Virus record (IMG/VR): IMGVR_UViG_3300035208_004867
From: an uncultured virus (IMG/VR IMGVR_UViG_3300035208_004867)
Taxonomy: Duplodnaviria; Heunggongvirae; Uroviricota; Caudoviricetes
DNA: 20,000 nt
Reading direction: 5' to 3' (one strand)
In this document: piece after piece, positions 2,796-20,000 of the stretch
How the letters are laid out: each line of letters starts with the position of its first letter
Position numbering within the stretch: the stretch's first letter is position 1
Translations under genes and position numbers: made by a program
The notes under the pieces: generated by a model
Databases searched by the model: none
Seen by the model: the letters and a program-made list of their open reading frames with translations, nothing else
Told to the model about the DNA's origin: nothing

Positions 2796-2811
2796 TTGGA
2801 GGTAAATAAAA

Positions 2812-4539: not shown

Positions 4540-4561
4540 TGATGAACAGGAGGAATAAATA

Positions 4562-5041
4562 ATGGCTTTACCTACAGCTACAACTAAAATAATCGCAGGC
4601 GGCGCATGGTGTCAGGTGCGTATCAGGGAAGCATCCGGCGGGACTCTGAAGGTCATAGGACTTGCAACTGAAGCATCTTACAGTGAAGATTTCCAGCTTC
4701 AGCCGGCGGCCGTCATAGGATATCTTGGTCCTGCATCTATAGATTCTCAGGGATATACATGCTCTATTACAATAGGGACTTTCGTTCCTGAAAACAAGGC
4801 AAGTACAGGATATCCGGGAGCCGGTGACACGACACTGACCGATCTTCTTTCTACAAGAAGTGAGGTACAGGAAGCAGGAAAAGGGAAAACCTTTGATTAT
4901 CTTGATTTTTACAACACAGCCACAGGAGAAGTCATAAACGCTTTCTCTCAGGCAATAATATCTTCTGACGGATCAAGAATTGCGCCGAACAGTTATGTGT
5001 CACAGAACATAACTTTACTTTCTATCGAAAGGACGGTATAA
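4562..5041 (+). CDS. Tail tube protein
   Basis: 159 aa beta-rich protein directly after the sheath; AGGAGG RBS. Confidence 0.85.
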   Translation: MALPTATTKIIAGGAWCQVRIREASGGTLKVIGLATEASYSEDFQLQPAAVIGYLGPASIDSQGYTCSITIGTFVPENKASTGYPGAGDTTLTDLLSTRSEVQEAGKGKTFDYLDFYNTATGEVINAFSQAIISSDGSRIAPNSYVSQNITLLSIERTV

Positions 5042-5074
5042 TTTCATATCTAAATTTGAACAGAGGTGGAATTT

Positions 5075-5563
5075 ATGGAAGTAAAGAAAGGTTTTTCAAT
5101 CGGAAAATTATTTGAACAGAAACCTGCAGAAGAAACTCTGAAAAACAGCAGTGAGAAACCTGTTATTCAGGTCAAAGAAGATATTATAGGAAAACTGCTC
5201 AGTGGTGATCCTGTTAATAAAAAAATTGATACCTGTTATGGTGAATTTGAATTCAGGTACCCGTCAGGAAGTGATTCAATCAACATTGCCAGACGGAGAT
5301 CTGAATATATGGGGGATCATCCTCAGAATACTTTTGACGACGGAATGCTTTATCAGTTCCAGAAATGGGCAACTCTTGATGTTCTTATTTCAAAAGTCCC
5401 GGAAAAATTCAAGGAGGTATCTACGTGGGCTGATTTTCCTGATCAGGAGACTGCTGATGAGGTTTTCAACACAGGCATTACGTTTTGCTCAGGAATTCGG
5501 GAAAAAATTAAAAACAATCGATCTGGAAAATCTGAGTCAGCAGACAAATCAGGAAACAATTGA
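5075..5563 (+). CDS. Tail assembly chaperone (G-like)
   Basis: Lies between tube and tape measure. GAGGTG at 5063-5068 precedes ATG 5075, so GTG 5066 is within the RBS. Confidence 0.75.
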   Translation: MEVKKGFSIGKLFEQKPAEETLKNSSEKPVIQVKEDIIGKLLSGDPVNKKIDTCYGEFEFRYPSGSDSINIARRRSEYMGDHPQNTFDDGMLYQFQKWATLDVLISKVPEKFKEVSTWADFPDQETADEVFNTGITFCSGIREKIKNNRSGKSESADKSGNN

Positions 5564-5804
5564 GAAATTATGGATATGTGAGCATTTTAAGTTGTTGCCT
5601 ACGGATAAAAGAGTTACAGATCTTACAGAAGACCAGATTTCAATTATCATAAGCAATTATCTGAATATGGTTCCCGAAGATGAAATGAAAAAAGAATACT
5701 GGAAGCATCGAGTTAATAAAGCTCCGGATCCAGACTTGCTTTTAAACATAGGATACAGCAAGCAGCAGATTGATAAAATAACAAAGGAAATAAACAATGC
5801 CTGA
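5499..5804 (+). CDS. Tail assembly chaperone extension (T-like), probably reached by programmed frameshift; start coordinate approximate
   Basis: An overlapping frame encodes LWICEHFKLLPTDKRVTDLTEDQISII. There is no ATG/RBS near the overlap ahead of this motif, and the ORF ends overlapping the tape measure start. Confidence 0.65.
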   Translation, partial: GKKLKTIDLENLSQQTNQETIEKLWICEHFKLLPTDKRVTDLTEDQISIIISNYLNMVPEDEMKKEYWKHRVNKAPDPDLLLNIGYSKQQIDKITKEINNA

Positions 5805-7728
5805 TATAAGATATCATGTAGATGTAGACACCAGCGGTATGAAAAATGCCGCAAATGATTTTGACAGTTTCAAGCAGAAAATTTCCGATGTTATGGGTGT
5901 TACAGATCCCGGCAAAGTTGAGCAGTTCTGGGATGAATATAACTCAGGGCTTGAAAACCAGTTAAAAACCCTTGACAAGATAGAAAGTCTCAGAGCGAAG
6001 CAGACAAGAAATACCAATTTATCGTCTTCTGATGGAACTAACTGGGCGCATAATATTTTTTCTTTCGGACATACAGTGGGAGGACTTGCCGGCGGAGTAA
6101 CGAGGGATGCGGCAGGTGCCGTTGTAGGAGCCGGTGGTGATATTTTCAGTGACATATCAAAGATGTGGAAAGATTTGCCGATGCCTGCAAAAATTGCGAT
6201 GGGAGGAGCAGGCGCCGTTATAGGGACTGGATTTGCCGGTAATGAGTTGTCAAAACAGTACGAAAACGTAGCGCCACAGGTTATATCTGCTACAGCAGCA
6301 CTTGGGAGATTTGGAGAAACAGCAAAAGAACAGTCTGAGAATTTCCGTACGACGATGCGGAGCATTACAAATGTTTCAGCAGAATATGGATACAAGATAA
6401 CTCAGGGAGCGCAGACAATAGAATCACTTATGCGCGGCGGTACTCAGTCGGGAGCTGCCACAGGATTAAGTGAAGACGTTATGCGTCAGTCACGGTCTTT
6501 AGGGTATGCTTCTCCTCTTGCAAGTCTTACATCATTATCAGCTATTGGAAGCAGGTTTGGACTTGCAGGTAATTTATCGAATTATGCGCTTGGAAGTGCA
6601 GGAAAAACGGTAGGATGGGCAAGAACTGATGAGCAGGCTCAGGCTTTATTGTCCATGCTTCAGGGTAATGTTTCCGGAGGTGTAAATCTTACAAACGAAA
6701 ATGTAAAAACCATGGTTCAGGCTCAGAACTGGTTATACGGAGCATTCGGAGAAAGAGCTGCAGGGCAGGGCGGAGCCGCAATGTATCAGAACCTTTCAGG
6801 AGCACAGGCAGGCGCAACTTCTTTAAGTTCAAGCGGAAGTATGCTTCTTTACGAATCTGCAAGAAAACCCGGGGAAAATTATACTGACACGATGTCAAGA
6901 CTGGAGTCCGGTTTCAGTCCGAAGATATTTGATCAGTACAGAAAATCAATATCAGGATCATCAAACACAGAGCAGATAGAACTTGTAAGACAGGCATACG
7001 GAGTTAATTATACAGTTGCAAGAGATATGCTCAGTGCTAAAAGTGCCGATGATATTGCGAAAGTTTACAAGGCAACGAGCGGGCCGGGGACGGAAATTAA
7101 AAATACAACAGAAGTGGATATATTAAAATATCAGGAGCAGATTGCAGGAGATGTACGTAATATTGCTACAGGAACTTCTGACGTTAAGTCAGGCGTACTC
7201 AGAGGAGTAAGTGCTATAACAAGTCTTGCCGGTAACAGAGACGGAACATATGAAAGTTTAATAAGCGGCAAAAATGAAACTACAGTAGAAGAAAGGGAAG
7301 TTACCGCAAGAAAAAACGCCATGAAAAGAGCCGGATATGTAGATGATAAATTTATGAGCAGCAACTTCGGTAGTCTTTCAGCTGCAAATGCTGCCCTTAC
7401 CGGAAAGGGAGGAGATGTGAAATCAGCCTCTATGTGGCTATATTCTCGGTATGGATTAAATACAAATGATGCACGGGATGATATTCAGTTAATAAATAGC
7501 GCCTTGCAAAACAAATATTTTGTAAGACTGGCGACAGAAAAAGATCCAAATTTCATGAACAGAATTGCTGATATTAATAATCAGGAAAAAACAGACTGGT
7601 CTGCAAAAGAAATAAAACAAGCAGCATCAGAGATAGAAAAAGAAGCCGGAGCTGTAGGAATGTTAAATCAGATATTAAATGAACTTAAAACAGCCAACAA
7701 TAGCCCTGTTGTTATAAGGAAAAGATAA
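5797..7728 (+). CDS. Tape measure protein
   Basis: 643 aa, Ala/Gly/Ser-rich helical protein with hydrophobic Gly-rich segments (GGLAGGV...GGAGAVIGTG), directly after the chaperone pair; AAGGA RBS. Confidence 0.8.
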   Translation: MPDIRYHVDVDTSGMKNAANDFDSFKQKISDVMGVTDPGKVEQFWDEYNSGLENQLKTLDKIESLRAKQTRNTNLSSSDGTNWAHNIFSFGHTVGGLAGGVTRDAAGAVVGAGGDIFSDISKMWKDLPMPAKIAMGGAGAVIGTGFAGNELSKQYENVAPQVISATAALGRFGETAKEQSENFRTTMRSITNVSAEYGYKITQGAQTIESLMRGGTQSGAATGLSEDVMRQSRSLGYASPLASLTSLSAIGSRFGLAGNLSNYALGSAGKTVGWARTDEQAQALLSMLQGNVSGGVNLTNENVKTMVQAQNWLYGAFGERAAGQGGAAMYQNLSGAQAGATSLSSSGSMLLYESARKPGENYTDTMSRLESGFSPKIFDQYRKSISGSSNTEQIELVRQAYGVNYTVARDMLSAKSADDIAKVYKATSGPGTEIKNTTEVDILKYQEQIAGDVRNIATGTSDVKSGVLRGVSAITSLAGNRDGTYESLISGKNETTVEEREVTARKNAMKRAGYVDDKFMSSNFGSLSAANAALTGKGGDVKSASMWLYSRYGLNTNDARDDIQLINSALQNKYFVRLATEKDPNFMNRIADINNQEKTDWSAKEIKQAASEIEKEAGAVGMLNQILNELKTANNSPVVIRKR

Positions 7729-9233
7729 TGAGAAGTTATAAAAGAACGCCTGAATTTGTTGTTTCCGTTGTCCGTCCGAATTATTTTTCTGCGGATGATT
7801 ATGCTGAAACTTCTGTTGCCCAGTTCAATTCAGACGCAACTAATAATGTTCTTGTAGATTACAGATACAGAAATGAAATAGAATCGTTCTCGTCTGATTT
7901 CTCTATGACACTTTTACCGGCTTTTGTAGGCAACAGCAAAAAGACAGCCATGGACTATTTTCTTGTCAATGATGTTGTTAAAATATATGAATTCAAGAAA
8001 CTTAAATACGTAGGAATAATAAAATCTCTTAAATACAATGCACGTATGGACGGGGATAAACCAGAAAGAACGATAGTTGTATCAGGATACGGAGTCGGAG
8101 GTATAATAGAGAATTTTTCTCTGACTCTTGACAATATTGTACTTGCATCGGCAAAGACAAATTTAGACTCCATAAATAATTCTTTAATTACCAAACTTGC
8201 ATCATATCATGCTGCCGGATCTTCCATGCAGTCAATATTAAGCACAATAAAAGATGCTTATAAAACTGTTATTGCTGATCTCGCCGGATTTACAGAAGGA
8301 GAAGGGATATGGAAAGTAGTAGATCAGTATCTTGTTTTCTCTTCTGTTTACTCAAACATGTATATGAAGTATCCTTTTTCCGGTTCTCTTTTTAGTTATG
8401 ACGGGAATACACTTAAAGGCATATGGGATATGCTCGTATGTAAACCTTTACAGGAATTCTTCATCAGATGGGAACCTGTACAGAAAAAATATGTGATAAT
8501 TCTTCGGCCTACACCTTTCTCACCGGATGCATGGATGAATCTTAATATAACAACACTTGATCCTTTATATTATGATGATACGGAACTTGAGTTTTCTATA
8601 GATGAAATTAAAACATGGTTTTTTGCATATATGTCAGGAAGTTCCGACCCATACGAAGTAGCAAGAGTTACTTATAAAAACGGGATCATATGGCCAAAAA
8701 GTTCATCTTTGTCATCTTATGATAAAACGGTTTTACAAAAAAAATGGATGATGTACGGATATAAGCCGCTGGAAGTCTCTTTTAGATTTTGTGACATCGG
8801 GGTTCTTTCTGACAATAAAAATAAAATAACAATTCCAAAAAGCGGAATAAAAGGGGACGTATTCCCCGGCGGAAAAACAGTAACAGATGAGCAGCTGATG
8901 TCGGCGTATTCAAAGCAACTTTTTGACTGGTATAAAAGGATGGACGAGATGCTCAAAGGGACGATAGCGGGTATGACAATGGAAGATTCTCCTCTCGCCG
9001 GAGAAAGAATATACTGGCATGGAGCACAGTTTTATGTTGAGTCTGTAGAAGGAAGCTGGACATACGGCGGTGAAATGAGGACAACACTGCGCGTTACAAG
9101 GGGTGGTATATATAACTCTAATTTTAGTTCCGGCTCAGATGAGTCTGACAAAAACTGGTTTTTCAGAAAACTTGAAAAAACAGGGAATAAAATAGGAACA
9201 ACAGCAGTTGAGATGCAGGACAACGGTGTATGA
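7728..9233 (+). CDS. Baseplate hub protein (T4 gp27 / Mu gp44-like)
   Basis: 501 aa after the tape measure; IILRPTPF motif and C-terminal GERI...FYVESVEGSW.YGG...TTLRVTRG typical of hub proteins. Confidence 0.75.
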   Translation: MRSYKRTPEFVVSVVRPNYFSADDYAETSVAQFNSDATNNVLVDYRYRNEIESFSSDFSMTLLPAFVGNSKKTAMDYFLVNDVVKIYEFKKLKYVGIIKSLKYNARMDGDKPERTIVVSGYGVGGIIENFSLTLDNIVLASAKTNLDSINNSLITKLASYHAAGSSMQSILSTIKDAYKTVIADLAGFTEGEGIWKVVDQYLVFSSVYSNMYMKYPFSGSLFSYDGNTLKGIWDMLVCKPLQEFFIRWEPVQKKYVIILRPTPFSPDAWMNLNITTLDPLYYDDTELEFSIDEIKTWFFAYMSGSSDPYEVARVTYKNGIIWPKSSSLSSYDKTVLQKKWMMYGYKPLEVSFRFCDIGVLSDNKNKITIPKSGIKGDVFPGGKTVTDEQLMSAYSKQLFDWYKRMDEMLKGTIAGMTMEDSPLAGERIYWHGAQFYVESVEGSWTYGGEMRTTLRVTRGGIYNSNFSSGSDESDKNWFFRKLEKTGNKIGTTAVEMQDNGV

Positions 9234-9844
9234 AAAGGATAATAATAGAAGACAATAAACCTGTTACTCAGTCAGGGTTATCCCAGGCGGATACATTCGG
9301 TAAAAATATAAATATTGTTTATGGATATGTTACAAACATTTATATAAAACTTGCCGCGGTATCGGTAAAACTTGACAACGGAATAACGATTAAATATGTT
9401 TCTGTCCCGTCACGAGAATGGGAGTCAGGAGACGGTGCCGGTAAAACTGATATGCCGCCTGTAGGTTCAAGGGTGTCTGTTTTTTTTCCTTATGGGCAGC
9501 AGAATATTTCCGGTGTCCGTGTGCAGGATTCTCCGATAGACATTAAAAAGGATACTGACAGGCTGGTTACAGGGGAAGAGAATAAGATAACACATCTTTT
9601 AAAAGGCGGGATACAGACCGTATATGACCGTTCCACAGGCAATTATATCATAACTGATAAAGATAACAGTTCTTTTTCCATTACAATAAATAAGAAAAAC
9701 AGTATAATATCAGTTACAGACTGGAATTCAAACAAATTTGTCATGAACAGTGACGGGATTAATATTACTGATAAGAACAATAATACGATAGCGATGGCAA
9801 GCGGTAAAGTGACAATAAACAGTCATCTTGAGGTAACGTCGTGA
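9230..9844 (+). CDS. Baseplate central spike (P2 gpV / Mu gp45-like)
   Basis: OB-fold-like N-terminus with MPPVGSRVSVFF, followed by short beta-strand repeats (ITDKDN, VTDWNSN, ITDKNNN). Confidence 0.8.
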   Translation: MKRIIIEDNKPVTQSGLSQADTFGKNINIVYGYVTNIYIKLAAVSVKLDNGITIKYVSVPSREWESGDGAGKTDMPPVGSRVSVFFPYGQQNISGVRVQDSPIDIKKDTDRLVTGEENKITHLLKGGIQTVYDRSTGNYIITDKDNSSFSITINKKNSIISVTDWNSNKFVMNSDGINITDKNNNTIAMASGKVTINSHLEVTS

Positions 9845-10215
9845 AATATATCATGGTAAACGGAGGAACAGTGGGATTCGGAACAGGTGCTGTTGTTACG
9901 GGTGGTATATTTACTATTACATCGGTACCAAGTACTGATGTGCTTATTGATAACAACGGAGTATATTCTGGATCTTTATCTTGGACTTTTGCAGGAGGAA
10001 GCGGTACAGGGAGCGTATCAGGTACCGTAACCGGATCAGGAACTATAACGGCAGGAAGCACAAGTACAAAAGCTGATTCAAAGACTGTTGTCCTTTCTGG
10101 AGATTCTGTAACGGCAACTTTTACCGGGGTGGATTCTGACGGGAATACAGTAACATATGCTGCCCAGCAGGTAGAAATACTTACGGCTGGTCAAAGTGCA
10201 GTAAAGGCGGATTGA
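9841..10215 (+). CDS. Spike tip protein, PAAR-like
   Basis: 124 aa Gly/Thr/Ser-rich, GTGA-coupled to the spike gene; S..VLIDN..V, STKAD.K.VVL.GD and terminal I..AGQ..V motifs of PAAR-like tips. Confidence 0.6.
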   Translation: MKYIMVNGGTVGFGTGAVVTGGIFTITSVPSTDVLIDNNGVYSGSLSWTFAGGSGTGSVSGTVTGSGTITAGSTSTKADSKTVVLSGDSVTATFTGVDSDGNTVTYAAQQVEILTAGQSAVKAD

Positions 10216-10216
10216 T

Positions 10217-11896
10217 ATGGCGACAAGTACTGATTATGCATATTACACAAATTTGTGGCAGAAAGCTTATTATCTTGAAATTCTGAACAGCAGTAAGATA
10301 GTTGTGCAGTCTTTTGCTTTTTCTATGCCGCCGCAGTCATCTAAAATAAAGATAGGCCAGAGAATAAATGAAAAAAGAACTTTCGGCGGATTGTTTACTG
10401 ATGATTATGGAACCGATACTGCCCAGATATCTCTTTCGGGTAATACGGGAAATTCCCAGCTTAAAGAAATAAAATTCAACGGAGTCGCACAGTTTGTAAA
10501 CGGGGAAACCGAATCTCAGATTATATTAAATGACATTGCACAGTATAAAAATACATATCCAACGGATTTTGCAGATTATAAACTATATCTGTATGATTTG
10601 AGTCAGTCAACAGTAACGGGTGTTGCTTCAAAATATTCCGGATGGGAAGTAAATCTTAAAGATGTTACAATTTCAAGGGACGCATCAAGACCTTTGTTCT
10701 GGAATTATTCTATAGAATTCACCGGGATACATCCTTTAGGAATTAAATCATACAAAACAAACGGTCTTTATGGTTCTACGGCAATTGAACTGCTGGAGTC
10801 TCTTGTTACAGCAGTACAGACAGGACTTGCAGCACTAAAAAAAATCCTTGCATCCTATACATCCGTAGTAAGTACAATAGTATATGCAGAAAGCCTCTGC
10901 GATGATCTTGTATCATCGGTAACAGAATATGCGGATACTCTTGAAGGGTTTATAACAACAACGGAAACAGGAATAAATTCAACATTCCAGATAATAGAAT
11001 TTCCCATGTCTCTCGCCACAGAACTTGTTGATGCAGTACAGGACATACGCACATCATTTGAAAATTCCGTTGATACAATAGAAAATGATCTGACTGATGT
11101 AGAAACAAAAGCAGATACAACCGTTGAAATATACACAGACCTGTTCAATGTTGAGGATGATGCATACAGTGTACGTGCAACAGCAAAAAAACTTGGAAAC
11201 ACACCGACTGTTGAGACTGTCCCAAGCGATACGTCCGGAGCAGTATCAGCGACCATAATAAGCAGTAATACAACGACAAGCGGGACGACGGATACAGAGC
11301 TGTCCCTTTTAAAAACATATGGATATAAATCAGAAACAGCTACGTCAGAAACAACTCTTGACAAACTTGCGGTAAAATATTATGGAAGCGCTGACTATGC
11401 GAATACGATTGCAATTTATAATAATATAAAGGGTGATTCTGATATTATTACGGGTATGGAACTTAAAATACCGTATCTGTCATACACTCAGTCGATAAAC
11501 AACAATGAGACTTATTCTGCATCAGGTACAGATTTTTATGGAACTGATATTTCTTTGTCCGATAACAATGACATGGAACTTGCAGAGTATGGAGATTATA
11601 AAACAGTTGACAGTGAAAACAATGTGGGACAGGCAATGAATCTGAGGCTGGCAGAAGATAAAAGTTCACGTGTAAGACTTGATAATTACGGAATAACAAG
11701 TGCTGCCGGTACAGTAGATTCGGCAAGTCTTTTAGTCTTCGTTTCATCCGTAAAAGATACGCTTGTTCAGGATCCCAGAATAAACAGCGTTGAAAATTTC
11801 AGCACAAAAGTTGACGGAAGCACTGTTTATCTGTCTTACAATGCAAATCTGGAAAACGGGGGAACATACAGCTTCACATCAAGCGTTTCCTCTTGA
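10217..11896 (+). CDS. Fused baseplate protein: tube-initiator-like N-terminus, LysM domain and gp25-like sheath initiator
   Basis: N-terminus F.MPPQS..I...QRI...RTFGG.F.DDYG.D...ISLSGNTG; LysM-like TLDKLAVKYYGS...IAIYNNI...GMELKIP at ~11348-11473; gp25-like YGTDI...NVGQAMNLRL...YG...LVQDPRI at ~11537-11896. Confidence 0.7.
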   Translation: MATSTDYAYYTNLWQKAYYLEILNSSKIVVQSFAFSMPPQSSKIKIGQRINEKRTFGGLFTDDYGTDTAQISLSGNTGNSQLKEIKFNGVAQFVNGETESQIILNDIAQYKNTYPTDFADYKLYLYDLSQSTVTGVASKYSGWEVNLKDVTISRDASRPLFWNYSIEFTGIHPLGIKSYKTNGLYGSTAIELLESLVTAVQTGLAALKKILASYTSVVSTIVYAESLCDDLVSSVTEYADTLEGFITTTETGINSTFQIIEFPMSLATELVDAVQDIRTSFENSVDTIENDLTDVETKADTTVEIYTDLFNVEDDAYSVRATAKKLGNTPTVETVPSDTSGAVSATIISSNTTTSGTTDTELSLLKTYGYKSETATSETTLDKLAVKYYGSADYANTIAIYNNIKGDSDIITGMELKIPYLSYTQSINNNETYSASGTDFYGTDISLSDNNDMELAEYGDYKTVDSENNVGQAMNLRLAEDKSSRVRLDNYGITSAAGTVDSASLLVFVSSVKDTLVQDPRINSVENFSTKVDGSTVYLSYNANLENGGTYSFTSSVSS

Positions 11897-11921
11897 AAAA
11901 TATTATAGAAAGTTGTATCAT
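11893..11921 (+). promoter_or_regulatory. Sigma70-like promoter
   Basis: TTGAAA (11893-11898), 17-bp spacer, TATCAT (11916-11921); each hexamer is 5/6 to consensus. The AT-rich context lowers specificity. Confidence 0.5.
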
Positions 11922-11958
11922 TAATTAAGAAATAAGTGTTTCCAAAAAAGAAGAAGGG

Positions 11959-11988
11959 GCACGGCGGTAATATCGTCGTGCTTTTTTT
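11959..11988 (+). terminator. Intrinsic terminator
   Basis: Stem GCACGGCGGT / ATCGTCGTGC (10 bp, two G-U pairs), AAT loop, then T7 (11982-11988). An upstream A-tract may make it bidirectional. Confidence 0.75.
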
Positions 11989-12009
11989 ATATATAACGGG
12001 GTAAAAAGA

Positions 12010-13089
12010 ATGAGCTTCAATTTACGGACATATTCCGCCATTTATGCTTCAATTAAAGCTTATATAATAGCCAATCAGGATATTATAACAGATTTTAATG
12101 ACGGAGGTGTCCTTTCTTCAGAAATAGAAGCTTTCTCAAGACAACTTGCTCAGGCATACGCAGAAGACAGAGCCGGATTTACAGAAGTTCTTAAAAGACT
12201 TCCCTACTCTATATTTGATTTTTCTGCGAAAGATGCAGTGGCGGCCACAGGATCAGTCACCTTTGCCAGAACTGATACAACGGCGGCAGTAACAATATCA
12301 TCGGGAACTCAGGTATCTACTACCGGAGGAGTCGTATTTGAGACTACAGCAGATGCGTCAATGGCCATAGGAACGGCAAATGTATCTGTAGCCGTCAAGG
12401 CCGTAACATCAGGTACGACAGGCAACGTATCCGCCGGTACTGTAACAACTATTGTATCTTCTGTGGATGCTGATTCTGTAACAAACTCATCGGCTATGTC
12501 CGGTGGTGTAGATGCTGAAACGACATCCCAGATGCTGTCACGGTTCCGTTCTTACATTATGGGACTTTCAAAAAGTAATAAATATGGAATTATGTATGCA
12601 GCTCTGTTGAATACATCAGTAAGATCGGCTTCAGTGCTTGAACATTTTCCACCGAAAAGCAATCTTTATAATTTTACTCTTTATATAGACGACGGTAACG
12701 GGTCAGCAAGCAGCGAGATGATCGCAGTTGTAAAAAATATTATTGACGGAGACGGAACACAGACAAATCCGGGATACAGGGCTGCCGGAATAAACTGTGA
12801 TATACTGGCTCCTACAATTCTTTATCAGGCGGTTACAGCTACTATTACCGTTAATTATGATGTTGATGTAGATGAAGCAAAGTCAACCCTTGGAAGCGCA
12901 ATTACATCATACATAAACAGTCTTGTTCTAGGTGAAACCCTCATAAGATCTCAGCTTATGAAGGCAATATTAAATTATACATATGTTACAGATATAGTTA
13001 TATCTTCTCCCTCTGACAACGTGACTGCTGACAACAGCGAGATTATAAGAGCCGGAACAATAACGCTTACGATGGATCAGGAAGAGTAA
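12010..13089 (+). CDS. Baseplate J-like wedge protein (P2 gpJ / Mu gp47-like)
   Basis: 359 aa; ITDFN.GGV, ATGSVTF, GTQVST..GVVF.T, GT.GNV.AG, VTN.....GG.D.E....L..R motifs of Baseplate_J. Confidence 0.92.
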   Translation: MSFNLRTYSAIYASIKAYIIANQDIITDFNDGGVLSSEIEAFSRQLAQAYAEDRAGFTEVLKRLPYSIFDFSAKDAVAATGSVTFARTDTTAAVTISSGTQVSTTGGVVFETTADASMAIGTANVSVAVKAVTSGTTGNVSAGTVTTIVSSVDADSVTNSSAMSGGVDAETTSQMLSRFRSYIMGLSKSNKYGIMYAALLNTSVRSASVLEHFPPKSNLYNFTLYIDDGNGSASSEMIAVVKNIIDGDGTQTNPGYRAAGINCDILAPTILYQAVTATITVNYDVDVDEAKSTLGSAITSYINSLVLGETLIRSQLMKAILNYTYVTDIVISSPSDNVTADNSEIIRAGTITLTMDQEE

Positions 13090-13090
13090 A

Positions 13091-14209
13091 ATGTCAAGTT
13101 ATGTTTCTTTTATTGATAAACAGCCGGCTCTTATAAAAAAAGGCAGTCTTGAAAATACTGCTGTTATATGGGAAGGAATTTCACAGGAATTTGACACATA
13201 CAGAACTAATGCAGAGGAATGCAGCAGTGTACCCGTCACGGCAGACAATGTCACGGGGGAACTTCTGGATGAACTTATAAAAAGAACCACAGGATATACA
13301 AGAAGTCTTCAGATGACAGATGCACAGCTTTTCAAGTATATCCCTATATTTTTCAGAAAGAACAAAAATCTTTCATGGGCTACGAAGTGGTCAATAATTG
13401 ATTCATTCAGCTACCTGCTTGATATAAACTATCTTTATCTTGTAGAAAACTGGGTGGATACAAATCTTTTGACAGGCAATGATTTTGAAGATTATGAGGT
13501 AGGAGTAAAAACAGCACAGTTCGGAAACTGGATACCTTCGGGAAGCACAGTGAATATCCTTTCTGACGGACAGTTTGAAGGGTCTAAATGTCTTTCGCTT
13601 ACAGGCACGGGAAGCGTTTATCAGGATGTCACAAGTGCGGCGGGAACATATATACTTCTTGTTCCTTATACAGGCAACGGTAAAATCACCGTGCAGAGAA
13701 CTTCTGACAGTTATTACTGGAATTTTACGACAATGGCATGGAATGCCGCTGCATCATCTAAAACAGTATCAAACAGTACTGCATATTATAAAATTCAGGA
13801 ACTTTTTATAATATTCAGTTCAGATGATACGGCAAAAATAACCTTTGAACCGGCGGAAAGCTCAGACACTTTTATGACAGATTACATTCAGTATGGATTA
13901 AAAGCAGCGTATCCGTATATAAAAATTATCTATAAAATATTAAGTCCTGTCGGAGAGTATGTAAACAACTGGCCGGCAGGAAATGATCCGATAACTACAC
14001 AGGTACTTGGCAACGGGTCAAGTGTTCTGGGTTCCGGTTCTTCGGTACTGGGCAGGGTAGGACTCAACGAAGACAATGCTACTTTTATGGACAATGATTT
14101 TATTTTCGGTGCCGGTGCAAGTTATCCTTCTAATTTTTATCAGAAAATTCTAAATGATATAAAACCGGCGGGTGTAAAAGCTGTATTTTCATTTATAGGG
14201 GAGGATTAA
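13091..14209 (+). CDS. Second baseplate wedge protein (P2 gpI / Mu gp48-like) with an inserted jelly-roll/CBM-like domain
   Basis: Follows J; N-terminal TGELLD and C-terminal LNDIKPAGV are gpI/gp48-type motifs. The central NLL.GNDFE...W...FEGSK.L.L segment resembles carbohydrate-binding-module folds. Confidence 0.65.
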   Translation: MSSYVSFIDKQPALIKKGSLENTAVIWEGISQEFDTYRTNAEECSSVPVTADNVTGELLDELIKRTTGYTRSLQMTDAQLFKYIPIFFRKNKNLSWATKWSIIDSFSYLLDINYLYLVENWVDTNLLTGNDFEDYEVGVKTAQFGNWIPSGSTVNILSDGQFEGSKCLSLTGTGSVYQDVTSAAGTYILLVPYTGNGKITVQRTSDSYYWNFTTMAWNAAASSKTVSNSTAYYKIQELFIIFSSDDTAKITFEPAESSDTFMTDYIQYGLKAAYPYIKIIYKILSPVGEYVNNWPAGNDPITTQVLGNGSSVLGSGSSVLGRVGLNEDNATFMDNDFIFGAGASYPSNFYQKILNDIKPAGVKAVFSFIGED

Positions 14210-14214
14210 AGAGT

Positions 14215-15558
14215 ATGGGTGAAATAACAAGAACACATTTTATAGACTCGGAAATTACAAAAACAGAAGACTTCCAGCTTGCGGCTGATTCTGCTTTTGA
14301 TACTGTATCAGATCTGTTCAGTCAATGGTTTGCGGATATAACGCATGATGTAATTGTTTCTGGTCTTGAGGTACAACAGGAAACAACACCGAGTATGAAC
14401 GTACTTATTAAAGCAGGTTTCGGATACCGGAAGAATGCAGAGGAGATATGTTTTCTGTCGTCAGATCTGTCCGTTTCTATTACGGCAGCAGATGCTTCCA
14501 ATGACAGGATTGATACGGTAGAATGTAAACTTAAAAAAACCGATCTGGATGCACAGACAAGAAAATTCAAAGACCCGACTACTGGCAATGAGTCTTATTC
14601 CAGCGTCTATACTAAATATAAATTATCAGCAGAAATAAAAGTAGTAACAGGTACAGCTGGAACAAGCGTTGCTCCGGATGTTGACAGCGGATACATGAAA
14701 CTGGCTGAAGTAAAAGTTCCTTACGGTGTAACAACTATTGTTGCTTCGAATATAAAAAATTCCAGCGCTGATTACGACGGACAGATAAACAGTGGATGGA
14801 CTGCGGATACCGCTGTCACTTTCCGTCTCGGATCAGTTAATGAGATAAAAGAGACCCTTCTTACCCATACAGCAAATACACAGCCGCATGGTGCATCAGC
14901 ATCGGCACTGGCATCGAGACTTATGTGGAGGGATGCTAACGGCAGGTCTCAGGTTTTAGCTCCGTCAGCAGACAGTGATATTGCACGTAAAGTTGATGTG
15001 GATAACTCATACGGATCGATTATTAACGATGATCTTACCATTGCAGGGACGAAAACTTTTTCAGAAACAATCCAAGGGGATATATCAGGTAATGCGGCTA
15101 CTGCTACATTGGCAGATACCGTGAAAGGCGGAGTTGAATCTGCTGAAAGGCTGACAACTGCAAGAACAATAGGCGGTGTGAGTTTTGACGGCTCTGCAAA
15201 TATAAATCTTCCCGGCGTAAATATATCCGGAAATCAATCCACAACCGGCAACGCCGCAACCGCAACAACCGCCGCATCATGCAGCGGGAACGCCGCTACG
15301 TCATCGTCATGCAGCGGGAACGCCGCAACCGCAACAACCGCCGCATCATGCAGCGGGAACGCGGCTACGTCATCGTCTTGCACCGGCAATGCGGCGACGG
15401 CAACATCTACAAGACTTTGCAAGGCATATTCTCCCGGTGAAACTTATCCAGCAGGATATTATATAGATTTAGGGTCCATCGGCGGCTCTATTAATAATTT
15501 AATAGTTTTAGTCAGTGGAACAGTCCCAGATTTTCATTGGTATTTAAGATATAATTAA
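14215..15558 (+). CDS. Tail fibre protein 1
   Basis: N-terminal baseplate-attachment motifs (GLEV...PSMNV.I.AG, AD.SNDRID.V, G..KLAEV.VP), then fibre motifs GNAATAT and LTTARTIGGVSFDGSANINLPGVN..GNQ.TTGNAATAT. Confidence 0.85.
   Translation: MGEITRTHFIDSEITKTEDFQLAADSAFDTVSDLFSQWFADITHDVIVSGLEVQQETTPSMNVLIKAGFGYRKNAEEICFLSSDLSVSITAADASNDRIDTVECKLKKTDLDAQTRKFKDPTTGNESYSSVYTKYKLSAEIKVVTGTAGTSVAPDVDSGYMKLAEVKVPYGVTTIVASNIKNSSADYDGQINSGWTADTAVTFRLGSVNEIKETLLTHTANTQPHGASASALASRLMWRDANGRSQVLAPSADSDIARKVDVDNSYGSIINDDLTIAGTKTFSETIQGDISGNAATATLADTVKGGVESAERLTTARTIGGVSFDGSANINLPGVNISGNQSTTGNAATATTAASCSGNAATSSSCSGNAATATTAASCSGNAATSSSCTGNAATATSTRLCKAYSPGETYPAGYYIDLGSIGGSINNLIVLVSGTVPDFHWYLRYN
15250..15405 (+). 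repeat. GC-rich in-frame tandem repeat, 69-bp unit (39+30 bp), about 2.2 copies
   Basis: AACGCCGCAACCGCAACAACCGCCGCATCATGCAGCGGGAACGC starts at both 15250 and 15319; encodes alternating GNAATATTAASCS / GNAATSSSCS. Confidence 0.9.
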
Positions 15559-15656
15559 TTTAACAAATTACAGATGATTTATATTCTGTTCCGTCGGGTC
15601 ATGCATATATATTGATAACCAGAATTTTATAAAAATATAATAATTAAGGAGGTATT

Positions 15657-17051
15657 ATGGCTGAAAACATAACGACTGATAATGTGGTAAGCGGTGATTC
15701 GTTTGACGAAAAAACAGAACCTACTTACGAAGACAAAGTAGTAGGTTACGATACCGCGAACTCTAAAAATATAAAAATCATCATAAGCAGTCTTGCAAAA
15801 AAAATTATAACCGGCGGTACTGTACAGACAACTATATCAGGGGCAGACAGTATACCTGTATACAATGCCGGCGGTGCTGTAGCCGGATATATAACATATG
15901 CAAATCTTGCCAGTGCTTTAGCCGCGGCAGGTACAGCACAGACTGCTATGGCCGATGCGGACAGAATTAAATTGTACAACGCAGCCGGAGGTATTGCAGG
16001 ATACATAACATATGCAAATTTAAAAGCAGCTTTATCATCAACTTTGGGTACCAATTGGCCAACAGCACTTGCATCGGAACTTGGTGCAGGTGGTGCAAGT
16101 TTACTGGGATTATCTGCACTTAAATCCAACATGGCTACAGCACTTGCAAATAATCTCAACTGGGGACGTGCGGCAAATGCTGCTGATATACCGCTTCTTA
16201 CGACAGATGTAATAACATCACTTCTGCATGTAGGTGATTATGCAGCTTTTGCATCGACAGCTCCGAATGTGCCTGATGCACACAACTGGTATGTAATGTG
16301 CGAGGTTGGGGGATATTCTGCAACAGGTGCAAGATACAGGGCACGGCGTACAGGCGGGTATGAATATATCGGGGATATATTAACAGCAGGTACAGTCACA
16401 TGGATAAAGGCATGTACACCTCCTGTTGGTTTTGTATATTTTCAAGGTACGAATGATGCTGATCCTGCAACGCTTTATCCTAATACAACATGGGATGATG
16501 TGTCATGGGAAGAGGCGAATACGACACGCCGCACTATCGGTAGTTTAGCAGGCGCACGGTTTACCGGAGTTCCTGCCCATCTTGCAGTGTCGGTAACAGG
16601 CAATGTTCCATCCATTACAATAACCAATGGCGGTAGCGGATATCTATCAGGCGGTAACGGGACAATTACACTGACGGTTGTCGGCACATGCACGACTCAG
16701 GCTACACGGACGGCAACGGTGACAAGCGGTGTCATCACTGCAATAAATGTTGTAGCAGCCGGTGCTGGATATACTTCGGGAGCAGTAGCGGTTTATGATG
16801 GTGTTGCAAGATATGCCGATATGGTACAGGGACATATTTTCAGAAGCATTTCTCTAGAAGGAGCTTCGGAAATAAAAGGGTCTTATAGCGTGGCCAGTGG
16901 TAGTGTCTATAATGTTCCTGCAATTGCAGGAACAGGAAAATCTGTTATTGCAACAAATATATCTACTGACGGCACAAACGGCACGCCACGCATCGGAGCA
17001 CAGACATCGAGTCCATGGTCAGCAGTAACTAAATGGAGGAGAACGGCATGA
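15657..17051 (+). CDS. Tail fibre / receptor-binding protein 2 with C-terminal collar-like domain
   Basis: TAAGGAGG RBS; 464 aa Ala/Gly/Thr-rich; PVGFVYFQ...P..L.P.TTW ... QGH ... DGTNGTPRIG..T.P.....W.R.A C-terminal module; followed by a chaperone-like gene. Confidence 0.8.
   Translation: MAENITTDNVVSGDSFDEKTEPTYEDKVVGYDTANSKNIKIIISSLAKKIITGGTVQTTISGADSIPVYNAGGAVAGYITYANLASALAAAGTAQTAMADADRIKLYNAAGGIAGYITYANLKAALSSTLGTNWPTALASELGAGGASLLGLSALKSNMATALANNLNWGRAANAADIPLLTTDVITSLLHVGDYAAFASTAPNVPDAHNWYVMCEVGGYSATGARYRARRTGGYEYIGDILTAGTVTWIKACTPPVGFVYFQGTNDADPATLYPNTTWDDVSWEEANTTRRTIGSLAGARFTGVPAHLAVSVTGNVPSITITNGGSGYLSGGNGTITLTVVGTCTTQATRTATVTSGVITAINVVAAGAGYTSGAVAVYDGVARYADMVQGHIFRSISLEGASEIKGSYSVASGSVYNVPAIAGTGKSVIATNISTDGTNGTPRIGAQTSSPWSAVTKWRRTA
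15816..16043 (+). repeat. Diverged 114-bp (38-aa) internal duplication in fibre 2
   Basis: GTVQTTISGADSIPVYNAGGAVAGYITYANLASALAAA versus GTAQTAMADADRIKLYNAAGGIAGYITYANLKAALSST. Confidence 0.85.
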
Positions 17052-17548
17052 TATTTTCAAAAATTGAAAACGGAATTATATGCAGCAAAATATCTGTATC
17101 AGTAAAACCGGACGGGTATGAGCTTGATACGTCTGACAGCCACACGGGTGAACGGCGTGATTTTTTTGATGATAACTGGAACAGAAAATCATTATCGGTT
17201 CTGGTTGCTGAAAAACTTGTTGACATACCATCGGGTTATAAACTTGAGCAGAATGAATTTGTTGAAATGACCAACGAAGAAAAAATAGAGGCAGGAATAC
17301 TCAAACCCACCGAACGGGAGAAAATAGCAGACGGGAAAATTGTATCAAAAACAGCAGAAGAATTATACGCTGATAAACTCATAACAGCAGGAGAATATAA
17401 TGAGTATATAGATACATGCAGAAAGTCGGAATATGTTGCAACAACTGACAGTATATTCTGGGATTACCAGGAAGACAAAGCAACCAAAGCCGACTGGGAG
17501 AAAGCAAAACAACTTATCCGTGACAAGTACCCGAAGGTGGAGGAATAA
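17048..17548 (+). CDS. Putative tail fibre assembly chaperone
   Basis: GGAGGA at 17035-17040 and ATGA overlap at 17048. C-terminal R...Y....D.IF..........W......IR.KYP is typical of fibre-associated chaperones. Confidence 0.6.
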   Translation: MIFSKIENGIICSKISVSVKPDGYELDTSDSHTGERRDFFDDNWNRKSLSVLVAEKLVDIPSGYKLEQNEFVEMTNEEKIEAGILKPTEREKIADGKIVSKTAEELYADKLITAGEYNEYIDTCRKSEYVATTDSIFWDYQEDKATKADWEKAKQLIRDKYPKVEE

Positions 17549-17869
17549 ATGCCTGAAATTGACGTGCTGAAACAGAAGATAGAATTTGTGGAAAAAAACT
17601 CAAAAGACCGGTGGCAGAATGTGGAAAAAGAAATGTCGGACATAAAACAACAGCTTGCTGATCTGCCGGATGAAATAGTTAGGCGAATGAATGAAACCAC
17701 TGACCTTAAAATCTCTGTAAAAATATCAGAACTTGATGCAAAAATCGAACGTGATAAAAATGCTACGCAGAAATGGATCATAGGTATTGCGATTACGGCA
17801 ATATTATCATTGATTGGAACATTGATTACAATTATATGGAGTGTTGCACAAAATGGAGGCATAAAATGA
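17549..17869 (+). CDS. Coiled-coil protein with one C-terminal TM helix (XhlA/BlyA-like lysis-cassette membrane protein)
   Basis: GGAGG RBS; charged heptad N-terminus, then WIIGIAITAILSLIGTLITIIW; sits upstream of the endolysin. Confidence 0.55.
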   Translation: MPEIDVLKQKIEFVEKNSKDRWQNVEKEMSDIKQQLADLPDEIVRRMNETTDLKISVKISELDAKIERDKNATQKWIIGIAITAILSLIGTLITIIWSVAQNGGIK

Positions 17870-17955
17870 AATTTCAGACAAATGGAGAACTTGTTAAAAA
17901 AGAGTATTCCTTGGCGATGGATTATTATTTCAGTATTAAAAAATAAAAGGAACAG

Positions 17956-18528
17956 GTGATGAATATACAGGATTTACTGCTTACAATTAATGATTTTTCC
18001 AGATGCGGGAAAAAACTTGATTCTGTGAAGGCAATAGTTATGCATTGGACGGGCAATCCTATGGCAAGTGCGAAAGCGAACAGAGATTTTTTTGAAAACA
18101 GAAAAAACGGAAAAGCCGGATACGGCTCTGCTCATTACATTGTCGGGATAGACGGAGAAATAATAAGGTGTATTCCGGATAATGAAATTGCATATCATGT
18201 AGGAAGTTCTCAAATTGATCCAAAGAGCGGAAAGATATATACTGATTATGCGCGGGACATATTCGGAAAATATGCAATAGATTATAAGACATTGTCTCCT
18301 AATCTGTGTACAATCGGGATCGAGATGTGCCCTGTTGACAGTGCCGGACATTATAAAGACGTTACGCTGGAATCTGCGTCGGAGCTTGTTTCTTCTCTGC
18401 TGAAAAATAATAGATTGAAAAAAGAAAACATTACCACACATTATGCAATCGTAGGATGGAAGGATTGCCCTCGTTTATGGGTGAATCAACCGGAACTTTT
18501 TTCAGATTTTATAAAATCAATAAAATAA
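17956..18528 (+). CDS. Endolysin, N-acetylmuramoyl-L-alanine amidase (Amidase_2 family)
   Basis: IVMHWT, SAHYIV, AYHVG, IGIEMC, ITTHY, KDCP Zn-amidase motifs; no cell-wall-binding domain or signal peptide visible. The start could be ATG 17959. Confidence 0.92.
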   Translation: MMNIQDLLLTINDFSRCGKKLDSVKAIVMHWTGNPMASAKANRDFFENRKNGKAGYGSAHYIVGIDGEIIRCIPDNEIAYHVGSSQIDPKSGKIYTDYARDIFGKYAIDYKTLSPNLCTIGIEMCPVDSAGHYKDVTLESASELVSSLLKNNRLKKENITTHYAIVGWKDCPRLWVNQPELFSDFIKSIK

Positions 18529-18552
18529 AGTCCGACCGACTATAAGGCAGGG

Positions 18553-19062
18553 ATGATTATGGGAGAATTATTTATTTTTATCGGTATGTGCCTGCTTGGC
18601 GCATTCTGTGTTATCGGTTTAATCGAGTGGGTTAAATCTGTCCGTGATGCAGTTATTTCGGCTGTAAAACACACGGGTAAAATCACAACAATTGCATGGC
18701 CGGTTTTGTCGATAGTGTTTGCAGTGGGTATGGGATTCGCTCTGGGTAAAATGCCGTCGAGTACCATATTCGGCGCAACGTATAATGCGGTTATTTTTGC
18801 GTCGGTATTGATGCTGGCATTCAACGAGATTTTAGGTTACAATGTGATCGTTAAACTTATTTTTTACTGGGTTGATAAAGTTGTGTATGGTGATAAAATA
18901 CCGGATGCGGTTGCACCGAAAATAGAAATGATAACGGAAAAAGTTAAAGAAATTATTCCGGATAAAATTATTGATCCGGCTCCTGTTAGTCCGGTAGTAA
19001 CAACAGGAACAATAACAGGATCTCCTGTTAATACAACAGGAACAATAACAGGTACATTATGA
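18553..19062 (+). CDS. Putative holin with three hydrophobic segments and a hydrophilic Pro/Thr tail
   Basis: TM-like stretches LFIFIGMCLLGAFCVIGLI, IAWPVLSIVFAVGMGFAL and AVIFASVLMLAF; lies between endolysin and the spanin-like gene. Confidence 0.65.
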   Translation: MIMGELFIFIGMCLLGAFCVIGLIEWVKSVRDAVISAVKHTGKITTIAWPVLSIVFAVGMGFALGKMPSSTIFGATYNAVIFASVLMLAFNEILGYNVIVKLIFYWVDKVVYGDKIPDAVAPKIEMITEKVKEIIPDKIIDPAPVSPVVTTGTITGSPVNTTGTITGTL

Positions 19063-19586
19063 AAAATCTTAAGTTCTGGATTGCCGCATTTGTTTTTGTC
19101 GCTCTGATTTTTGTCTGTGCTACCGTGTTCTGTGGATGTGTGACAACAGGGAGTGTCCCGTCTGAAATTATCGCACAGTCGGCCGCCGTTGATACAAGCA
19201 TCTCACAGTTGCAGACACAGCAGGCAACATCAGCGGAAACGGTAACACAGGTATCAGCAACCACTGATGTAATCGAGCAGACGGCAAAAACGTTGAACGA
19301 TGGCAAACTCACTGGGCAGGTGGCGACACTTAAAACACAGGTTAAAACTCTAACTGATAGTCTTAAGATCGAGCGTGATAAAACAACAAAGATACAGTCT
19401 GATTATTCAACAGTAAAGGTTTCGTCCGGTACGGAGATAACAAATCAGTCCGGTAAAATCATTAAACAGGCGGCACAGATTAAAGCGCGCAGTAAATGCA
19501 TTATTATTTTAGCTGTAATTTTATTCATACACTTACTGCTCGACGCGGCTGTACTGCTGCTGAAATTCTATTTTCATAAGATTTAA
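19059..19586 (+). CDS. Putative unimolecular spanin-like lipoprotein
   Basis: N-terminal signal ending VFCG-C27 (lipobox-like), Q/T/K-rich coiled-coil middle, C-terminal TM helix IIILAVILFIHLLLDAAVLLL; last gene of the lysis cassette. Confidence 0.6.
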   Translation: MKNLKFWIAAFVFVALIFVCATVFCGCVTTGSVPSEIIAQSAAVDTSISQLQTQQATSAETVTQVSATTDVIEQTAKTLNDGKLTGQVATLKTQVKTLTDSLKIERDKTTKIQSDYSTVKVSSGTEITNQSGKIIKQAAQIKARSKCIIILAVILFIHLLLDAAVLLLKFYFHKI

Positions 19587-19630
19587 TTTACAGTCGGGGA
19601 TAATACCTAGGCATTTATAATTATTATTGT

Positions 19631-19660
19631 GCCGGACATGTAATATGTCCGGTTTTTTTT
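19631..19660 (+). terminator. Intrinsic terminator ending the late operon
   Basis: CCGGACAT-GTAAT-ATGTCCGG perfect 8-bp stem followed by T8. Confidence 0.88.
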
Positions 19661-19682
19661 GTCTAAAAAATATATTGTACTG

Positions 19683-19711
19683 TTGACAAGTGTATAAATA
19701 ACTGTTAGAGT
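19683..19711 (+). promoter_or_regulatory. Sigma70-type promoter (likely early, host RNA polymerase)
   Basis: Perfect TTGACA at 19683-19688, 17-bp spacer, TG-extended TAGAGT at 19706-19711, AT-rich UP-like tract upstream, and GGAGG RBS at 19718-19722. Confidence 0.7.
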
Positions 19712-19728
19712 GCCAATGGAGGCTGAAA

Positions 19729-20000
19729 ATGAATAGAAAAGAATTTTGTAAAAAATATGGAATTACGGAAGCTCAGTTTTATGGAAAAGAAGAGGTCGGC
19801 GGCTCTCTTTACCTGAGTTCCCTTACGTCCATACCTGACGGGTTCAACCCGACGGTCGGCGGCTCTCTTTACCTGCGTTCCCTTACGTCCATACCTGACG
19901 GGTTCAACCCGACGGTCGGCGGCTCTCTTGACCTGGGTTCCCTTACGTCCATACCTGACGGGTTCAACCCGACGGTCGGCGGCTCTCTTTACCTGCGTTC
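19729..20000 (+). CDS. LRR-like tandem-repeat protein (3'-truncated; absent from the ORF track)
   Basis: ATG 19729 after GGAGG: MNRKEFCKKYGITEAQFYGKEE followed by (VGGSL[Y/D]L[S/R/G]SLTSIPDGFNPT)n, open to the window end. Confidence 0.85.
   Translation, partial: MNRKEFCKKYGITEAQFYGKEEVGGSLYLSSLTSIPDGFNPTVGGSLYLRSLTSIPDGFNPTVGGSLDLGSLTSIPDGFNPTVGGSLYLR
19795..20000 (+). repeat. Near-perfect 60-bp tandem repeat, at least 3.4 copies
   Basis: Units start at 19795, 19855, 19915 and 19975 and are identical except at unit positions 16 (T,T,G,T) and 22 (A,C,G,C). Confidence 0.97.

Follow-up and report, generated by a model that had tools for sequence, protein, structure and literature searches.

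What kind of gene begins at the right-hand end of a 20,000-nucleotide stretch of DNA from an uncultured member of the Caudoviricetes (IMG/VR record IMGVR_UViG_3300035208_004867; hereafter the window), and what could a phage gain from a protein built of nearly identical short repeats? An open reading frame (ORF) on the + strand (19729..>20000) runs off the end of the window inside an array of 60-bp units of the leucine-rich-repeat (LRR) type. It is well supported that the window holds the 5′ end of a one-gene phage module, and that the product is a cytoplasmic protein of two parts, a repeat solenoid followed by a constant C-terminal domain. As to function, we give about an even chance to a stand-alone binder-effector in phage-host conflict, whose constant domain would act on, or through, a variable partner.

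Within the window, the array is made of units at 19795-19854, 19855-19914 and 19915-19974 and part of a fourth at 19975-20000 (3.4 copies); Tandem Repeats Finder (TRF) reports a period of 60, 3.5 copies, 96% matches and a score of 393. An earlier reading made from the letters alone (the sequence-only reading) had described identical units varying only at two codons, and base-by-base comparison confirmed this description. The only bases that differ among the visible units are those at 19810/19870/19930/19990 (T, T, G, T) and 19816/19876/19936/19996 (A, C, G, C), giving the residue pairs Y-S, Y-R, D-G and Y-R at codons 6 and 8; outside these codons identity is 100%, and there are no synonymous differences. 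The 51-nt core that lies between variable codons occurs three times with 0 mismatches, versus 0 matches in 200 dinucleotide shuffles. The array is also richer in GC than the rest of the window, as had been remarked (60.4% versus 40.4% in 1-19728). Because homologous arrays exceed the GC content of their own locus in 38 of 38 cases (median 49% versus 38%), we regard this richness as a family trait, largely set by the Gly/Pro-rich unit.

The two variable codons of the window belong to a wider pattern. We put 308 units from 69 genes in register, and the comparison of units within each gene covered 236 units in 39 arrays. It required at least three in-register 20-aa units per array, which removes a type with 22-aa units, and it left out loci judged to be duplicates or of the same lineage (L040, L041, L017, L012, L050, L029, L055, L064 and L067), although L055 proved in a later comparison not to be fully redundant. 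Within a gene, the amino acid at codon 4 differs between units in 34 of the 39 arrays, that at codon 6 in 34 and that at codon 8 in 36; the next most variable positions are codon 1 (17 arrays) and codon 9 (14), and L5, L7 and G16 vary in none. Pairwise counts of non-synonymous to synonymous differences, which are descriptive since the pairs are not independent, were 1292:33 at codons 4, 6 and 8 versus 824:1077 at the 16 framework codons (without codon 9), where changes are mostly synonymous. Position 6 takes almost exclusively one of two residues (D in 164 and Y in 123 of the 308 units), position 4 draws on S/Y/D/G/N/W, and position 8 on R/S/G/N/H/E/D. Hypervariability at codons 4, 6 and 8 is a property of the family, and the Ser at codon 4 of the window happens to be constant. 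Of the “two-residue code” proposed in the sequence-only reading, both codons stand as hot spots, but a third, codon 4, has to be added family-wide. Its larger claim, of a homogenised, recombination-prone, LRR-type solenoid that varies between units at the x positions of an xLxLx strand, holds in 39 independent arrays, where tabulation over units and homologues places the between-unit changes at these three codons. With a median net charge of -1.2 per unit and a median isoelectric point (pI) of 4.1 (37 genes), the arrays are acidic, which argues against a role in reading DNA; the C-terminal domains have a median pI of 9.2.

One explanation for such localised variation is that targeted hypermutation, by adenine mutagenesis like that of diversity-generating retroelements (DGRs) or by another dedicated diversifier, writes the variable codons. 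Codons of the form NNY make up 100% of those at position 6 and 94% at position 4, and the residue sets (D, Y, N, H, S, G, R) overlap those that AAY can reach, as this explanation would have it. However, codon 8 is NNY in only 56% of units and shows changes in each of its three bases (224, 247 and 249 pairwise differences), the other adenines of the unit are invariant, and the variable region stops short of the gene's 3′ end. The reverse-transcriptase profile RVT_1 (PF00078) matched in none of four related phage records (G001-G004, of which G003 is a 100%-complete provirus), with controls matched in 3 of 14 genomes, and the window contains no further copy of the unit, all three core matches lying inside the array. 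Because reverse transcriptase, template copy and adenine bias were not found, we rejected the array as a DGR target, in line with the doubt already voiced in the sequence-only reading, and targeted hypermutation of any kind seems hardly credible here. Ordinary recombination plus selection is sufficient for the pattern, and no new diversification mechanism is needed.

Relatives of the gene were present in 70 of 90 candidate stretches from IMG/VR (69 loci) and in 42 of 60 candidate stretches from bacterial genomes or metagenome-assembled genomes (MAGs; 41 loci). The bacterial loci are labelled Bacteroidota, Clostridia, Alphaproteobacteria, Planctomycetota, Acidobacteriota, Elusimicrobiota and several more groups; binning of phage contigs into MAGs is unreliable. 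A wide host range follows from the isolates that carry a family member (Arachidicoccus rhizosphaerae, Flavobacterium sp. CF136 and Parabacteroides sp. PM6-13, all Bacteroidota) together with two cultured phages matched by the window fragment in tblastn, Tetrasphaera phage TJE1 (Actinomycetota) and Edwardsiella phage Edno5 (Gammaproteobacteria). The TJE1 relative is 66% identical and forms an unannotated 245-aa ORF with a GTG start at 5001 (+ strand of L003, 5001-5738), and the Edno5 relative is more distant (247 aa), with eight 20-aa units of another LRR flavour. Megablast of window 17000-20000 against GenBank phages found nothing, nor did searches of IMG/VR for exact matches to the leader or the unit of the window.

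Among the 69 IMG/VR genes, 27 are full length, 17 leave the contig end inside the array and 25 begin at the contig start (one of the latter, L045, is mis-parsed). All full-length members except L058 share one layout: a leader of ~22 aa (M.K.EFCKK..ITE.QF.G.E.), between 2 and 17 or more units with the pattern VGG-x-L-[DY]-L-x-SLTSIP[ED]GFNPT, and a C-terminal domain of ~150 aa that closes the protein. The window thus holds the 5′ part of a widespread phage gene.

The units of one gene resemble each other far more than those of different genes, a case of concerted evolution: over the 16 framework codons, units have a median identity of 95.8% when they come from one gene (780 pairs) and of 68.8% when they come from different genes (741 pairs). 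Three contigs carry 5, 7 and 17 units between near-identical flanks (666 nt upstream at 100% and 1,080 nt downstream at 99.9-100%), and their arrays are composed of shared blocks, such as DYS-DDR-YDR-SYH. These numbers reflect either true copy-number polymorphism or assembly collapse, between which short reads cannot distinguish. The array is cut by a contig end in 42 of the 69 IMG/VR loci and lies at both ends of four viral contigs (L029/L033, L023/L037, L026/L052 and L066/L068), which are probably complete circular genomes opened by the assembler at the repeat and classed as linear fragments; such opening would explain where the window, or its contig, stops.

Given this tendency to break assemblies, we considered whether the array, or the perfect identity of its units, arose by short-read mis-assembly. 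Public reads of the window locus were available as Logan contigs from runs of two studies, one on landfill (X1) and the other on groundwater (X2). Here too the flank contigs end inside the array, at 19846 (X1) and 19823 (X2), and the order and number of units are uncertain in any short-read assembly. However, the same unit words occur in the two unrelated studies at ~3 to 8 times flank depth: unique flank words have a depth of 86-89 in X1 and 18.8 in X2, whereas in X1 a 48-nt contig of the invariant core has a depth of 700 (~8 times flank) and the Y-R and D-G unit contigs have depths of 279 and 253 (~3 times flank each). Contigs spanning entry into and exit from the array have depths like that of the flank. 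The exit is a 7,269-nt contig (depth 82.2 in X1 and 17.8 in X2) that starts in a unit and leaves the array after 19941, continuing in frame with S-YQGRMPNTKT, and the TJE1 array exits similarly (SS-YKGPKPNTRE). Such arrays are also present in the finished genomes of TJE1 and Edno5, and framework codons show synonymous drift between genes. Mis-assembly is therefore a very improbable source of the array. Public reads thus show both the array and its exit junction, but leave unit number and order uncertain. From the core depth of ~8 times flank we infer that the window gene has ~8 units followed by the C-terminal domain downstream, a figure that related phages in the same samples could inflate. 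Low-depth contigs at 19831, 19874 and 19934 join a unit to another continuation, and their loose ends are common to X2 and X3, a hint that the groundwater samples contain either a related phage or a second repeat variant of lower abundance.

Database annotation of the family is incomplete because the array breaks assemblies and because the finished TJE1 record annotates the wrong strand. In that record (HQ225832; L003 4931-5738), orf50 lies on the strand opposite the array and orf51 covers part of the C-terminal half. The opposite strand of the window array is open as well (19705-19998, 97 aa), a trap for gene callers. A contig that starts in a similar array (L071) was rejected as the continuation of the window, as it comes from a different phage (84% identity over only 57 nt).

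Assignment of the unit to the LRR type draws on a sub-group of relatives and on structural models. The window fragment matched no Pfam or PHROG profile and the 20-aa-unit relatives matched no Pfam LRR model; the 20-aa unit is without the Asn of the LRR core. That Asn (LxLxxNxL) is present in a sub-group with 22-aa units (L025, L032, L060, L061 and L072), which has the leader and C-terminal domain in common with the 20-aa-unit relatives. L025, the sole 22-aa member scanned, matched LRR_8 (30.3 bits, cut-off 27), LRR_4 (29.3, cut-off 27) and LRR_1 (25.6, cut-off 20.6), and it matched the LRR part of the SlrP and SspH2 models with E values of 1.3e-14 and 3e-09, matches that fall far short of the full-length cut-offs. 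An AlphaFold2 (AF2) model of L019 (263 aa, from a 24-sequence alignment) has a predicted local distance difference test (pLDDT) score of 91.2 and shows two short strands per unit, on L5-x6 and on T20-V1. Against PDB, this model yielded no Foldseek row at E<=0.001. With VIA-align, the best rows for residues 1-123 are LRR proteins (6lx0, Z 7.4, root-mean-square deviation (rmsd) 3.7, 110 residues aligned; 5a5c, Z 7.1; 4u08, Z 7.0), with rmsd 3.3-3.7 and 103-110 residues aligned over the top rows. Since these Z values are moderate, we call the unit LRR-type and do not assign it to a canonical class. In LRR proteins, residues that alternate with the core leucines of the xLxLx strand face outwards on the concave sheet. 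By analogy, x4, x6 and x8 should lie on a short beta-strand and point outwards from the concave face.

The C-terminal domain lies beyond the window end and so outside the view of the sequence-only reading; it forms the constant half of the protein, and what the protein does probably depends chiefly on it. In an alignment of 44 such domains (A1), columns D41, H78, K92, T123, G124, C126 and G129 are invariant and G79, A85, Y119, R120, A125, Y158 and G159 nearly so, with the conserved motif YRxITGACxxG. The domain model (pLDDT 82.8) has a six-stranded sheet followed by helices. An exhaustive profile search returned 1,723 cluster representatives (50% identity) at E<=1e-3, 1,087 at E<=1e-10 and 387 at E<=1e-30, and in the best 150 listed no more than ~60 residues follow the domain before the C terminus. 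The N-terminal parts of 18 fetched members comprise homogenised 20-aa units, degenerate 20-aa units, Edno5-type or other LRRs, a Cys-rich 8-aa repeat (P0136), a non-repeat region (P0028), or nothing (these may be short fragments). Because the N-terminal parts differ in this way, the C-terminal domain is the constant element and the solenoid an exchangeable front end. In P0136, the LRR array is replaced by ~20 copies of the Cys-rich repeat (C-x-F-x-T-G-x-x), another solenoid-like front end. Comparison with the ESM Atlas gave unnamed viral clusters only, and BFVD gave only uncharacterised relatives, some with automatic names (“E3 ubiquitin-protein ligase”, “Lamprin”, “SspH2”) evidently owed to the LRR. 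Residues ~52-94 of the model (m32490b29ba0c) form a strand-strand-strand-helix unit with the motif AHG-x-T-[LI]-x-E-A-x-x-D-L, which weakly resembles UPF0150/HicB-like and double-stranded-RNA-binding-domain (dsRBD)-like folds; with a Pfam UPF0150 match at E 0.15 in 1 of 44 members and VIA rows at Z 3.6-3.9, this lead is too weak to use.

At 21 complete loci we scanned the 113 neighbouring genes that lie no more than four genes away and encode 90 aa or more. In 9 of the 21, these neighbours include RecT, Erf, exonuclease, NinB or Gam genes, and a helicase, primase, HNH, NinG, DnaC, SSB or methyltransferase gene lies near the family gene in most of the remaining loci; downstream of the family gene in TJE1 and Edno5 are ERF/exonuclease and ExoVIII/RecT genes. 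The gene usually stands among early replication and recombination genes, as the early expression proposed in the sequence-only reading would have it. Less typical settings were tail and baseplate genes (L021), transposases (L043), an integrase (L031) and an endolysin gene just upstream (L007), the last as in the window. No conserved neighbour that might be a toxin, immunity gene or partner was found, no neighbour family occurring in more than two of the 21 loci (124 neighbours); therefore, the gene travels alone.

The gene might serve as a phage or prophage defence or superinfection-exclusion sensor, the hypervariable LRR recognising a protein of a rival phage and the C-terminal domain acting as an abortive or blocking effector. 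The layout of the window is moron-like, with a promoter match after a terminator-like hairpin and GC of 60% versus 40%; some members are found in proviruses (G002, G003), L031 has an integrase gene and a repressor-like gene just downstream of the family gene, and in Edno5 the gene shares an operon with CI. High internal repeat conservation with three hypervariable surface positions is, moreover, the signature reported for fungal NOD-like receptor (NLR) sensor repeats in passages of PMC12222747. Yet the protein has no NTPase or other switch domain, no partner gene is conserved across the 21 loci, and the family also occurs in TJE1, which a passage of PMC9892861 describes as virulent. PADLOC gave no match for nine family members at E<=0.1, which excludes only the systems known in 2023 that make up its library. 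We consider a sensor of this kind unlikely, if deserving of second place.

The neighbourhood and the charge of the protein could also be accommodated if the acidic solenoid were a nucleic-acid mimic, or a regulator of the adjacent recombination and replication proteins or of host nucleases, with variable residues tuning the charge. The acidic arrays and basic C-terminal domains, the recurrent adjacency to RecT/Erf/exonuclease/Gam genes and the exchange of the LRR for a different solenoid-type repeat in P0136 would all suit such a role. This adjacency is not conserved gene by gene, however, the D/Y toggle at x6 shifts the charge of each unit, which would be odd for a regular phosphate mimic, and no structural match to known mimics was obtained. 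We judge this idea improbable and rank it third, behind the exclusion or defence sensor, with counter-defence or host takeover the most likely role.

In the reading that we favour, of a binder joined to an effector in phage-host conflict, the gene would be driven by its own promoter at the start of the early or replication-recombination region. Repeated unequal recombination or slippage (concerted evolution) keeps the DNA of the units nearly identical, and x4, x6 and x8 are kept different. The variable acidic solenoid would bind a partner that changes quickly, most likely a host protein, for instance a component of a defence system, and the constant basic C-terminal domain, with its invariant Asp, His and Lys and TGAC Cys motif, would deliver a conserved action, either enzymatic or by docking. 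New specificities would arise by gain, loss and reshuffling of whole units together with point changes at x4, x6 and x8, so that no dedicated mutagenesis machine would be needed. The terms “re-programmable” and “anti-defence” used in the sequence-only reading are conjectural. A bolder and rather improbable form of this proposal is a phage-wide, single-gene “retargetable effector”, in which a reshuffled LRR cassette would aim a constant Cys/His-bearing domain at changing proteins of hosts or rival phages; the reshuffling would occur by ordinary recombination, possibly helped by the adjacent single-strand-annealing recombinases.

Several observations weigh against the binder-effector proposal. 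The context is not always early, given the tail and baseplate genes of L021 and the endolysin gene beside the family gene in L007 and the window. Short-read copy numbers are unreliable because contig ends interrupt the array in 42 of the 69 loci. Conservation of the unit framework is unusually high in phages assigned to many phyla, which could mean that a conserved partner binds other faces and is harder to reconcile with a pure arms-race binder. The label “effector” derives from the invariant D/H/K/C residues and the constant position only. Searches with the C-terminal domain gave nothing usable in Pfam, NCBIfam or PHROGs (Pfam and NCBIfam matches of relatives being to LRR models or below cut-off), a best E value of 1 in a sequence profile search of PDB, no Foldseek row at E<=0.001 for its model against PDB, and a best Z of 4.8 in a wide VIA-align comparison.

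Binders with hypervariable repeats typically mark molecular arms races, and more than once they have been turned into tools (transcription activator-like effectors (TALEs) and variable lymphocyte receptors (VLRs)/repebodies). New here is the joining of a hypervariable LRR binder to a constant domain that lacks a match, in a very large, uncharacterised phage family. Identification of the target would probably reveal a counter-defence or host-takeover activity, or else an exclusion mechanism, new in either case. If the “retargetable effector” idea were true, phages of many bacterial phyla would possess a compact, naturally evolved platform that combines binder and enzyme.

The family bears similarity to several known systems. 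The WD40, ANK and TPR arrays of fungal NLR sensors, including Podospora het-d, het-e and nwd, are described in passages of PMC12222747 as having high internal conservation; as far as those passages go, they share with the phage arrays near-identical unit DNA, about three hypervariable positions on the binding face, polymorphic unit number and difficulty of short-read assembly. The phage proteins differ in having LRR-type 20-mers, in lacking a NACHT/NB-ARC switch and in being phage-borne, and their array precedes a small constant C-terminal domain, whereas the fungal repeats are preceded by effector and NOD domains. Hypervariable LRRs were found by repeat mining in Altae-Tran et al. 2020 (PMC10392669), excerpts of which describe a surface LRR locus of Flavobacterium psychrophilum and Dictyostelium purpureum LRRs with a variable di-residue rich in Y/D/H/N. 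According to these excerpts, those LRRs show localised hypervariation, rearrangement of whole units and variable positions dominated by Tyr and Asp, like x6 here, but are cellular, either secreted and anchored by the type IX secretion system (T9SS) or eukaryotic, with units of ~22 residues. The excerpts hold no description of the phage family or its C-terminal domain, and a literature search on hypervariable leucine-rich repeats in phage gave no paper on this family among the matches listed.

IpaH, SspH and SlrP proteins likewise have an N-terminal LRR of short units followed by a constant C-terminal domain with an invariant Cys, and the LRRs of SspH1 and IpaH1880 are among the VIA-align matches of L019 (Z 5.1-5.2). 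In contrast to theirs, the phage C-terminal domain is ~150 aa of mixed beta/alpha structure and not a ~300-aa helical novel E3 ligase (NEL) domain, and a secretion signal is lacking. Membership of the NEL E3 ligases was rejected, as Pfam and NCBIfam scans of seven relatives gave no match over the C-terminal domains and the SlrP/SspH2 matches were confined to the LRR. With TALEs and lamprey VLRs the family has in common modular repeats with few specificity residues per unit, and VLRs are also LRR proteins with a variable concave face. VLR diversity is somatic and arises from cassettes by gene conversion; no donor cassettes were found in the window. A code in the TALE sense, to which the sequence-only reading had compared the array, is not supported: the 20-aa beta-strand units have three variable positions and a pI of 4.1, versus the 33-35-aa, helical, basic TALE repeats with a di-residue at 12/13. 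The phage family is not a member of the NLR, NEL, TALE or DGR families; by analogy, it would work like internally conserved receptor repeats and LRR-effector fusions. We also dropped the idea that the TJE1 “CALIN/attC” cluster mentioned in a passage of PMC9892861 is the repeat array, as the terminator quoted there is absent from the 10-kb stretch around the TJE1 gene.

The features of the window are collected in the table below. The sequence-only reading had placed the gene behind a late terminator and a strong promoter; a hairpin with T-run and a promoter-like sequence are indeed found there, and both stand as consensus matches only.

Table. Coordinates of the array gene, its signals and the preceding genes in the window
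Feature	Position	Strand	Remarks
Shine-Dalgarno sequence GGAGG	19718..19722	+	6 nt 5′ of ATG 19729; from sequence
N-terminal leader, 22 codons, MNRKEFCKKYGITEAQFYGKEE	19729..19794	+	kept in relatives; two short helices in the L019 model
Array of 60-bp/20-aa LRR-type units	19795..20000	+	3 whole units and 26 bases of a fourth
Hypervariable unit codon 6 (TAC/GAC)	19810..19812; also 19870-72, 19930-32, 19990-92	+	within-window and family comparison
Hypervariable unit codon 8 (AGT/CGT/GGT)	19816..19818; also 19876-78, 19936-38, 19996-98	+	within-window and family comparison
Unit codon 4 (TCT, Ser in every visible unit)	19804..19806; also 19864-66, 19924-26, 19984-86	+	third hypervariable position in relatives
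Terminator-like hairpin and T-run	19631..19661 (hairpin 19631-19653)	+	10 pairs, 5 G-C, loop 3; ends the lysis/late block
Putative sigma-70-like promoter, TTGACA-17 nt-TAGAGT, TG before -10	19683..19711	+	consensus match only, 10/12
Amidase_2 endolysin of the preceding lysis block	17956..18528	+	profile match; context
Holin-like ORF	17549-17869		context, lysis block
Two membrane-type ORFs	18553-19586		context, between endolysin and array gene

Window 1-16904 is matched at 100% identity by the nearest virus record, G001 (44.9 kb), which stops there. Its end falls inside a 464-aa tail-fibre-like ORF (15657-17051) and may be an assembly breakpoint or a strain-variable fibre tip. Upstream of this ORF, the window contains a 69-bp tandem repeat at 15244-15405 (2.3 copies, 89% matches). 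The structural region contains a diverged internal duplicate, seen as 75% identity between G001 18489-18702 and window 12276-12486.

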